Shown here: one piece after another, positions 24,623 through 25,213 of the stretch | How the letters are laid out: every line of letters starts with the position of its first letter | Position numbering within the stretch: the stretch's first letter is position 1 | Origin: Escherichia phage VB-EcoM-WM | Length of the DNA: 64,000 nucleotides | Direction: 5' to 3' (one strand) | Sequence record: PQ014731.1 | Program-made: the position numbers and the translations under genes | The notes under the pieces: generated by a model | The model's database searches: none | What the model was told of the DNA's origin: nothing | What the model saw: only the letters and a program-made list of their open reading frames with translations

Positions 24623-24877
24623 ATGAAAATTACTTTGAAGCCAGAATGTGTTGCAAATGACCGGGCTTTTAAGGATTGCACAGTCGGTGCAATTTATGAA
24701 GCAGAGTTTTGTGAGAACCCTCTGGTAAAAGCCCTTCTGGAAGAAGGGGCCCCTTTATCACAAGAAGAGATTGATGAGCTGGAAAACTCAGCCCAGTGCC
24801 TTACCTTTAAAGATGATGAAGGAGACTCTGTCTGGTGCACTGTTAATGAAGTAGTTTTTGTAAAACCTGAACATTAA
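24623..24877 (+). CDS. hypothetical protein (84 aa), paralog of 24941..25213
   Basis: RBS AAGGAGA; shares KP-x-AF(K/R)DCT and KDD-GD motifs with the next gene. Confidence 0.55.
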   Translation: MKITLKPECVANDRAFKDCTVGAIYEAEFCENPLVKALLEEGAPLSQEEIDELENSAQCLTFKDDEGDSVWCTVNEVVFVKPEH

Positions 24878-24880
24878 TAC

Positions 24881-24909
24881 TTGACAACAGTGATGGGGCC
24901 TAATATAAT
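24881..24909 (+). promoter_or_regulatory. sigma70-like promoter
   Basis: TTGACA-17nt-TATAAT, perfect consensus hexamers. Confidence 0.55.
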
Positions 24910-24940
24910 GGCCCTATCAAAACGAAAGGGGACCACAGCA

Positions 24941-25213
24941 ATGACCAAACAATATCAACGAATTAAAGCCAAGGTTAAGCCAGACTATCTGGAAAAGGAC
25001 TCTGCTTTTCGGGACTGCACAGCTGACAAAGTTTACACAGGGGCCGTCCTGTTGAACGATGAATTTGAAGTAGATGTTCTGGGTAAAGAGGCTACTATCA
25101 AGGACGACCAGGGAGATTATGTTTGCTGCACCACACGCGAGCTAGAAATCTTAGAATACTTCGGTGAAATCTTCACCTCTCTTGATGATTACTTAGATGA
25201 TGAGGCAGAGTGA
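24941..25213 (+). CDS. hypothetical protein (90 aa), paralog of 24623..24877
   Basis: Track start 24881 lies inside the promoter; ATG 24941 after RBS AAAGGGGA. Confidence 0.5.
   Translation: MTKQYQRIKAKVKPDYLEKDSAFRDCTADKVYTGAVLLNDEFEVDVLGKEATIKDDQGDYVCCTTRELEILEYFGEIFTSLDDYLDDEAE

Follow-up and report, generated by a model that had tools for sequence, protein, structure and literature searches.

The 64,000-nucleotide (nt) stretch of Escherichia phage VB-EcoM-WM analyzed here (PQ014731.1; "the window") carries two adjacent small genes, A and B, each preceded by a predicted host-type promoter. By its sequence, the window belongs to a Vequintavirus genome (rV5/FV3-like Escherichia coli phage): the 4 kb around the gene pair were 97.8% identical to Escherichia phage FV3, and 118 rV5-like records were matched. 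The pair lies within a replication-module cluster of small plus-strand genes, which runs from the DNA polymerase to a gene for a 423-amino-acid (aa) protein resembling single-stranded DNA-binding protein (SSB). The features needed at the outset are as follows.

24543 to 24571, plus strand: promoter A, TTGACA-17-TAAGAT, 10/12 consensus positions; equals rV5 P220.
24608 to 24613, plus strand: Shine-Dalgarno sequence of gene A, AAGGAG, 9 nt before the ATG; GAGGAG or AAGGAG in 12/12 genomes.
24623 to 24877, plus strand: gene A, 84 aa, isoelectric point (pI) 4.2, 9.4 kDa; equals rV5 ORF220 (rv5_gp215) and FV3_00201; phrog_12544.
24881 to 24909, plus strand: promoter B, TTGACA-17-TATAAT, a perfect 12/12, beginning 4 nt past the gene A stop codon.
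24941 to 25213, plus strand: gene B, 90 aa from the proposed start, pI 4.2, 10.4 kDa; rV5 ORF219 (rv5_gp214) and FV3_00200; phrog_11936.

The C-terminal tail of the gene B product is acidic. A coding sequence is annotated for gene A in every annotated relative, and both genes are labeled hypothetical protein in the FV3 and rV5 records. Phage rV5 has the same genes in the same order (ORF220/ORF219), with ~90% DNA identity over the stretch; it differs in carrying TACAAT where the window has TATAAT and in having ORF219 annotated from an ATG inside this -10 element (NC_011041). Gene B has a close homolog in bas52_0082, and bas54_0081 and bas54_0082 match A and B, respectively, by synteny.

A first-pass annotation of the window, made from the sequence alone, had described A and B as tandem paralogs sharing KP-x-AF(K/R)DCT and KDD(E/Q)GD motifs, and both the coordinates and the motifs were correct (LKPECVANDRAFKDCT...FKDDEGDSVWCT in gene A; VKPDYLEKDSAFRDCT...IKDDQGDYVCCT in gene B). 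Pairwise alignment, which it had named as a check, gave significant similarity (BLASTP, 25/77 identities [32%], expect value [E] 3e-10). Among the 452 open reading frames (ORFs) of at least 40 aa in the window, A and B were each other's sole significant match (E 1.6e-7; runner-up, E 0.66). Each protein matched a PHROG profile over its full length, gene A with phrog_12544 (E 7e-60, positions 1-84 of 84) and gene B with phrog_11936 (E 1e-58, positions 12-100 of 101), and each cross-matched the family of the other at ~1e-5, together with the weaker phrog_17459. PHROGs keeps phrog_12544 and phrog_11936 as separate families without function; the link between them comes from the present analysis. 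An alignment of the two clades contained 15 invariant columns, including D-x-A-F-x-D-C and D-D-x-G-D-x-V-x-C-T. The genes are adjacent, on the same (plus) strand, and collinear, and their DNA similarity is confined to one 46-nt stretch (74% identity) over the KP...AF(K/R)DCT motif, with a start-to-start spacing of 339 nt.

Both proteins are short and acidic, and an identity of only 32% with a 16-residue gap is what two unrelated small acidic proteins might show by chance or through convergence. We find that explanation hardly credible: it is opposed by the pairwise E value and by the window-wide search, in which nothing else fell below 0.66, by the reciprocal PHROG cross-matches and the columns invariant in both clades, and by the collinear DNA remnant and the likeness of the predicted folds. 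On this sequence evidence, A and B are anciently duplicated copies of one domain of ~70 to 80 aa, marked by AF(K/R)DC and KDDxGD. Codon variants place both genes under purifying selection, with 32 synonymous and 13 nonsynonymous variants in gene A (11 genomes) and 33 and 10, respectively, in the body of gene B.

A profile built from the A and B sequences of the genus alone retrieved further relatives at E 1e-11 to 1e-20; it also retrieved a two-domain protein, which was matched along two stretches at E 9e-7. When 1.8 billion representatives were searched with the two-clade profile, a third clade of ~85-aa proteins (MKAQRIKAKVK...) and a few others emerged, and ~25 more relatives on contigs of 120 to 145 kb came from a profile search of a larger collection. 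A profile match to the 1,213-aa protein P0029 was treated as spurious; by eye, that protein is made of TATD..GN..TCT repeats. A larger paralog family taking in the neighbors at 23465-23749, 23746-23973, 23970-24164, and 25924-26169, which share a by-eye "G..Y...KDDxG..W" pattern, was not supported by hhalign (A/B profile against alignments of eight neighbors: probability of at most 5%, E 0.008 or worse). Gene C, which follows gene B and has FKEG....CTTR in common with it, was likewise rejected as a family member, with no significant profile similarity.

The duplication had been called recent, and this does not stand. Amino acid identity between A and B was 32 to 35%, DNA similarity is reduced to the 46-nt remnant, and tblastn gave two locations, one for each gene, in every one of the 115 Vequintavirus records. 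At E values up to 1, tblastn found the genes in no phage record other than these 115. A contig of a sister lineage (L012; ~70% DNA identity to Vequintavirus over 62% of a 6-kb query) has a collinear gene order, in which the DNA polymerase and small genes are followed by orthologs of A (86 aa) and B (84 aa) and then by a C-like gene. Because both copies are adjacent and collinear there, the duplication predates the split between Vequintavirus and this lineage. The possibility that the promoter was duplicated along with the gene was considered and dropped: beyond the coding motif, only TTGACAA is similar, and gene A of L012 has no intergenic promoter.

The first-pass annotation also placed TTGACA promoters at 24543 and 24881. 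Both are there as claimed (10/12 and 12/12), and their 17-nt spacing was kept in all genomes when the window was aligned with 11 genomes of the genus (12 in total). In promoter A, whose -35 element overlaps the TGA stop of the upstream gene (24544-24546), the -10 element was invariant in the 12 genomes and the -35 element intact in 11/12; in JEP1, the spacer differs at ~8 positions. In promoter B, the -35 element was invariant, the -10 element read TATAAT in seven genomes and TACAAT in five (including rV5), and the spacer varied. The predicted transcription start of promoter B lies near A24916. In L012, a perfect TTGACA-17-TATAAT is likewise present between A and B, with AAGGAG and an ATG after it; no intergenic promoter precedes gene A, which overlaps the upstream gene (ATGA).

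A control was available in a look-alike at 24445-24474, inside the gene upstream of A (TTGACA-18-TACAAT, 11/12), where synonymous changes abolish one or both hexamers in 6/12 genomes. Because this in-gene site decays, the conservation of the two intergenic promoters is meaningful. On these comparisons, an own promoter appears as a genus-level trait for gene A and a deeper one for gene B. The L012 counterpart of the in-gene site is perfect (3587-3616; TTGACA-18-TATAAT, 12/12), and the two in-gene sites may reflect relocation of a promoter between lineages.

Across the window, a scan of both strands found 19 promoter sites scoring at least 11/12, against 1.4 ± 1.1 expected (~13-fold excess); perfect 12/12 sites numbered four, where 0.07 were expected. 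The sigma70 sites follow gene orientation, on the plus strand up to ~36.4 kb and on the minus strand from ~43.9 kb, with an outlier at position 40. The rV5 paper (PMC3606486) lists 33 such host-type promoters; P220 is among them (Kropinski et al. 2013, Table S4) and is a regulatory feature in NC_011041. The same table has no promoter for ORF219, that is, none matching promoter B, and a text search of the paper gave no mention of paralogs or duplication.

Two further features bear on how transcripts from these promoters would run.

25213 to 25614, plus strand: gene C, 133 aa, phrog_8284; its ATG shares 1 nt with the gene B TGA stop (TGATG).
28500 to 28521, plus strand: intrinsic terminator, 9 pairs (7 G-C) followed by a T run; sequence identical to rV5 t213 (PMC3606486, Table S4).

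A plus-strand scan found no terminator between A and B, nor any from 23059 to 28500, where the sole candidate, at 26191, is weak and A+T rich. Because nothing terminates transcription between the genes, transcripts from promoter A should read through gene B, and promoter B would then act as an internal booster that adds to this read-through. The terminator at 28500 is likely the 3' end of transcripts from both promoters. Gene C is likely cotranscribed with gene B and translationally coupled to it, because its ATG overlaps the gene B stop. Of the independent transcription first proposed for A and B, the part concerning own, conserved promoters holds; separate transcripts do not follow, as a nested, coterminal set is likely in the absence of a terminator between the genes. 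In the mechanism that we propose, host RNA polymerase would initiate at ~24578 (promoter A) and ~24916 (promoter B), and the nested transcripts would extend across gene C and the SSB-like gene before ending at the 28500 terminator.

Gene clusters of large lytic coliphages contain numerous short ORFs and recurring strong sigma70 promoters but few terminators, which gives overlapping coterminal transcripts. The early regions of T4 likewise have clusters of small genes with multiple strong host-type promoters; neither A nor B showed homology to a T4 early protein.

The plus-strand genes from 23059 to 28500 might instead form a single operon, in which the hexamers before A and B are unused look-alikes and expression comes by read-through from upstream, e.g., from the site at 23681 (rV5 P224). 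The lack of a terminator among these genes would fit, functionless sites do arise (the unconserved 11/12 look-alike at 24445 is one), and a lineage represented by contig L013 persists without promoter B. We nevertheless consider a single operon very unlikely, since the hexamers and their spacing were kept while the spacers and adjoining noncoding bases changed, promoter B is again perfect in a lineage only ~70% identical, and consensus sites are enriched ~13-fold in the window. Initiation at promoters A and B thus remains our preferred reading.

The longest ORF at gene B begins with TTG 24881, the first three bases of the promoter B -35 element. The first-pass annotation had noted that this start falls inside the promoter and had moved it to ATG 24941, a revision that the comparisons below support.

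24881 to 24940, plus strand: in-frame leader of gene B, holding TTG 24881, GTG 24890, ATG 24893, and ATG 24908; likely promoter plus 5' untranslated region.
24926 to 24932, plus strand: Shine-Dalgarno-like sequence of gene B, AAGGGGA, ~9 nt before ATG 24941; AAGGAGA in two relatives.

Public records use three gene B starts, equivalent to 24893 (FV3, slur12), 24908 (rV5, FFH2, ECP32, Bas54), and 24941. Of the upstream codons, GTG 24890 was lost in 7/12 genomes and ATG 24893 in 8/12, where it reads ATA. In the gene B frame, the leader (24881-24940) had 4 synonymous and 11 nonsynonymous codon variants and most likely behaves as noncoding DNA. Distant orthologs start with MKAQRIKAKVK, which aligns from residue 3 of the 24941 product, and the B ortholog of L012 has AAGGAG before the orthologous ATG and no upstream ATG at the place of 24908. 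The predicted transcript start of promoter B (~24916) lies downstream of ATG 24908. ATG 24941 is most likely the true start: the upstream starts are unconserved, the leader varies as noncoding DNA would, distant orthologs align from that point, and the predicted transcript starts past 24908. Gene B would be translated from ATG 24941 with AAGGGGA as its ribosome-binding site.

A start at ATG 24908 (101 aa) or ATG 24893 (106 aa), with the promoter-like site lying inside coding sequence, is quite unlikely. ATG 24908 is present in every genome of the genus compared, has a weak purine-rich stretch 9 nt before it, and is the start used by most database entries and by phrog_11936. Its conservation is, however, already explained, because the codon consists of the last two bases of TATAAT plus G. 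ATG 24893 is lost from most genomes, and codons 24908-24940 had 2 synonymous and 5 nonsynonymous variants, against 33 and 10 in the gene body. The leader of relative P0016 differs at 5/12 residues, against 89% identity in the remainder of that protein, and the L012 ortholog begins at the aligned position after AAGGAG, with no ATG upstream.

Overlapping promoter B and the gene B leader is an inverted repeat, which was absent from the initial description.

24891 to 24919, plus strand: 10-bp inverted repeat (hairpin), TGATGGGGCC, loop TAATATAAT, GGCCCTATCA; the promoter B -10 element lies in the loop.

As plus-strand RNA, the hairpin has a folding energy of -18 to -19 kcal/mol (z -3.9), compared with -13 kcal/mol (z -0.5) for the minus strand. 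Across nine distinct sequences, 97% of cells were paired (slid controls, 25 to 47%) and 4/8 pairs changed on both sides; the rV5 stem is GGACC/GGTCC, against GGGCC/GGCCC in others, and L012 keeps the pairing with an unrelated stem (GGGGTTAT/ATAACCCC). The stem is G+C rich and stable, but no U run lies 3' of it (next is AAACGAAAGG, or TTAACAAAAAAGG in L012), so that it is not a canonical terminator; it was also absent from the terminator scan. Rfam had no match that reached its gathering score anywhere in the window; between 23000 and 27000, it gave one subthreshold snoRNA match, taken as chance.

Hairpins around -10 elements were rejected as a general promoter design, since mean folding energy at 20 promoter-like sites was not below that of random 49-nt windows; promoter B alone among the 20 lay beyond the first percentile of the folding background. 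The only other window promoter with a notable hairpin is the site at 23681-23720 (rV5 P224; TTGACA-17-TATTAT with a TG extension), bracketed by a 7- to 9-bp inverted repeat (CACTGCA...TGCAGTG; -13.3 kcal/mol). In JEP1, the rewritten spacer of promoter A (L009, 1421-1449) creates a small inverted repeat, GGGGT...ACCCC, around the -10 element; this version begins TTGACAACAG, like promoter B, and its fold is weak (-13 kcal/mol, z -1.1).

Palindromes centered on -10 elements are a classic arrangement for repressors. The inverted repeat might accordingly be an operator in the DNA, bound by a dimeric regulator from the phage or the host, which would make promoter B switched rather than constitutive, and symmetric changes in the arms (GGGCC/GGCCC to GGACC/GGTCC) would also be expected of coevolving half-sites. 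Though a serious alternative, the operator is unlikely. Elsewhere in the window, the half-site was no more frequent than chance predicts (2 matches; 1.33 expected). Retention of pairing in L012 with completely different arms is more readily explained by an RNA stem than by a site recognized by a protein, asymmetric variants were mostly plus-strand G-U wobbles (5 cells against 2 nonpairs), and the plus-strand RNA folded into a far more stable structure than the minus strand did. We regard an RNA element carried by read-through transcripts as most likely. Because the predicted start of promoter B lies in the 3' arm, the hairpin would form only on RNA reading through from upstream, where it would most likely have a role in stabilizing or processing the gene A message on its 3' side.

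Pfam had no family above threshold for A or B, with subthreshold noise only. An AlphaFold2 model of B (34-sequence alignment) reached a mean predicted local distance difference test (pLDDT) score of 83.7 and a predicted template modeling (TM) score (pTM) of 0.70 and showed a five-stranded fold with one short helix. A first run on gene A (11-sequence alignment; pLDDT, 50) was not used; relative to B, gene A has an insertion of ~16 residues, predicted as helical in a low-confidence model. Compared with viral models, the B model matched its own ortholog (TM 0.95), then an 83-aa protein of Shigella phage CM1 (30% identity, E 1.6e-4, TM 0.60 to 0.65), which is probably the gene A ortholog, and then uncharacterized proteins of other phages. 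In overall topology, the model resembles SH3-like barrels (the Sho1 SH3 domain [2vkn], Bacillus subtilis YorP [2heq], the Ski2 insertion/KOW barrel [4a4k], and the SH3-like domain of InlB [1m9s]). The predicted fold is thus probably a generic SH3-like small beta-barrel, which provides no functional lead. A cysteine metal site was set aside, as the Cys of the D-C dipeptide is the sole cysteine invariant in all clades and the two-domain relatives lack the others.

Natural variants show the domain in other arrangements. Two proteins on phage-like contigs (P0030 and P0042) carry it twice in one chain. On L013, a single 125-kb metagenomic contig, protein P0044 (4001-4243), a chimera of the A N terminus and the B C terminus, stands in place of the pair; the crossover lies in a common CAGGTG, and promoter B and the hairpin were deleted with it. 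On another single metagenomic contig, P0021 is a natural B-C fusion joined at the common CTTR residues; by our inspection of the DNA and an approximate estimate, the junction is an 11-of-12-nt microhomology, which chance could produce.

Transposon data exist for Bas54, where bas54_0081 and bas54_0082 occupy the same place after the DNA polymerase, with the same lengths (255 and 306 nt), in a collinear cluster. In the HIDEN-SEQ preprint (bioRxiv, 10.1101/2025.11.20.689424), both genes are called nonessential, with insertions at 11/11 TA sites for bas54_0081 and 15/17 for bas54_0082. One second-host comparison there showed no depletion (log2 fold change, 0.85 and -0.05, respectively), and the data give a phenotype without a function. 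By synteny with Bas54, A and B would be individually dispensable in the laboratory. Together with the A/B chimera and the B-C fusion, the transposon data point to a redundant or accessory role for the pair.

Most likely, though this is the weakest step of our argument, A and B are accessory modules that bind a protein partner of host or phage origin, a guess that follows from the modeled fold class, the acidity, the fused homologs, and the dispensability. They possibly act as a dimer. Both ideas fit the two-domain single chains and the A/B chimera that replaces the pair. A more specific version, in which A and B form a heterodimeric two-barrel module (a split form of P0030/P0042) that binds a host or replisome partner while the hairpin couples read-through to the A:B ratio, is speculative and, we think, improbable.

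Taken together, ancient paralogs, host sigma70-type promoters, nested transcripts, a gene B start at 24941, and an accessory function form an explanation that we hold with reasonable, though not high, confidence. Several observations weigh against it. The -10 element of promoter A (TAAGAT) matches consensus at just 4/6 positions, and because its -35 element overlaps the upstream stop codon, its conservation may in part be coding constraint. The L013 lineage has lost promoter B entirely, so this promoter is not indispensable. ATG 24908 is kept in 12/12 genus genomes, preceded by a weak GGGG, AGGA, or GGAG, and a 101-aa form of gene B made from read-through mRNA is possible. The dimer idea draws on the fused homologs alone, and the orthology of the Bas54 genes to A and B comes from gene order and gene lengths, not sequence. 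A literature search turned up no mapped Vequintavirus transcription start site, transcript, RNA-seq data, or protein N terminus.

Flanking the cluster, the DNA polymerase ORF (18827-22225) encodes 1,132 aa, compared with 809 aa in FV3. The difference is a single in-frame insertion of 324 aa (residues 672-995, ~20840-21811; CYSGDTQ...VAVCGN, then C), the N-terminal part of which matches a solved intein (6zgq; E 8e-6). The insertion is probably an intein with a homing-endonuclease domain; a Pfam search at E 0.01 did not pick it up. Farther along (22226-23415), the polymerase gene is split, with an HNH endonuclease ORF (22360-22866) between the main part and a 118-aa C-terminal piece (23059-23415) that matches positions 185-295 of phrog_8888 "DNA polymerase." In ECP32, slur12, and Bas54, the polymerase is one unbroken 2,778-nt gene. 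Rfam detected no group I intron, and the interruption may be an intron or a split gene. At the other end of the cluster, the 423-aa SSB-like protein (26618-27889) has a Gln-rich linker and, close to the C terminus, FCDDIPF; its position makes it the ortholog of Bas52_0087, which is SSB-like with an E. coli SSB-type tip. Its Bas54 counterpart is essential in the HIDEN-SEQ data.

Both genes and promoter A (as P220) were already public; the family link, promoter B, and the hairpin appear to be absent from public annotation, though all are ordinary kinds of feature. The value of the analysis is mainly one of annotation: the architecture is ordinary for a phage genome, and the general view of phage gene clusters is unchanged. 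For the genus, it joins two hypothetical families, phrog_12544 and phrog_11936, into one domain family with two-domain relatives in single chains, offers a consistent start for a gene annotated at three positions in public Vequintavirus records, and adds a conserved, perfect-consensus promoter to the published rV5 set. The suggested redundancy of the pair would be useful in choosing knockout targets in phages that are therapeutic candidates.

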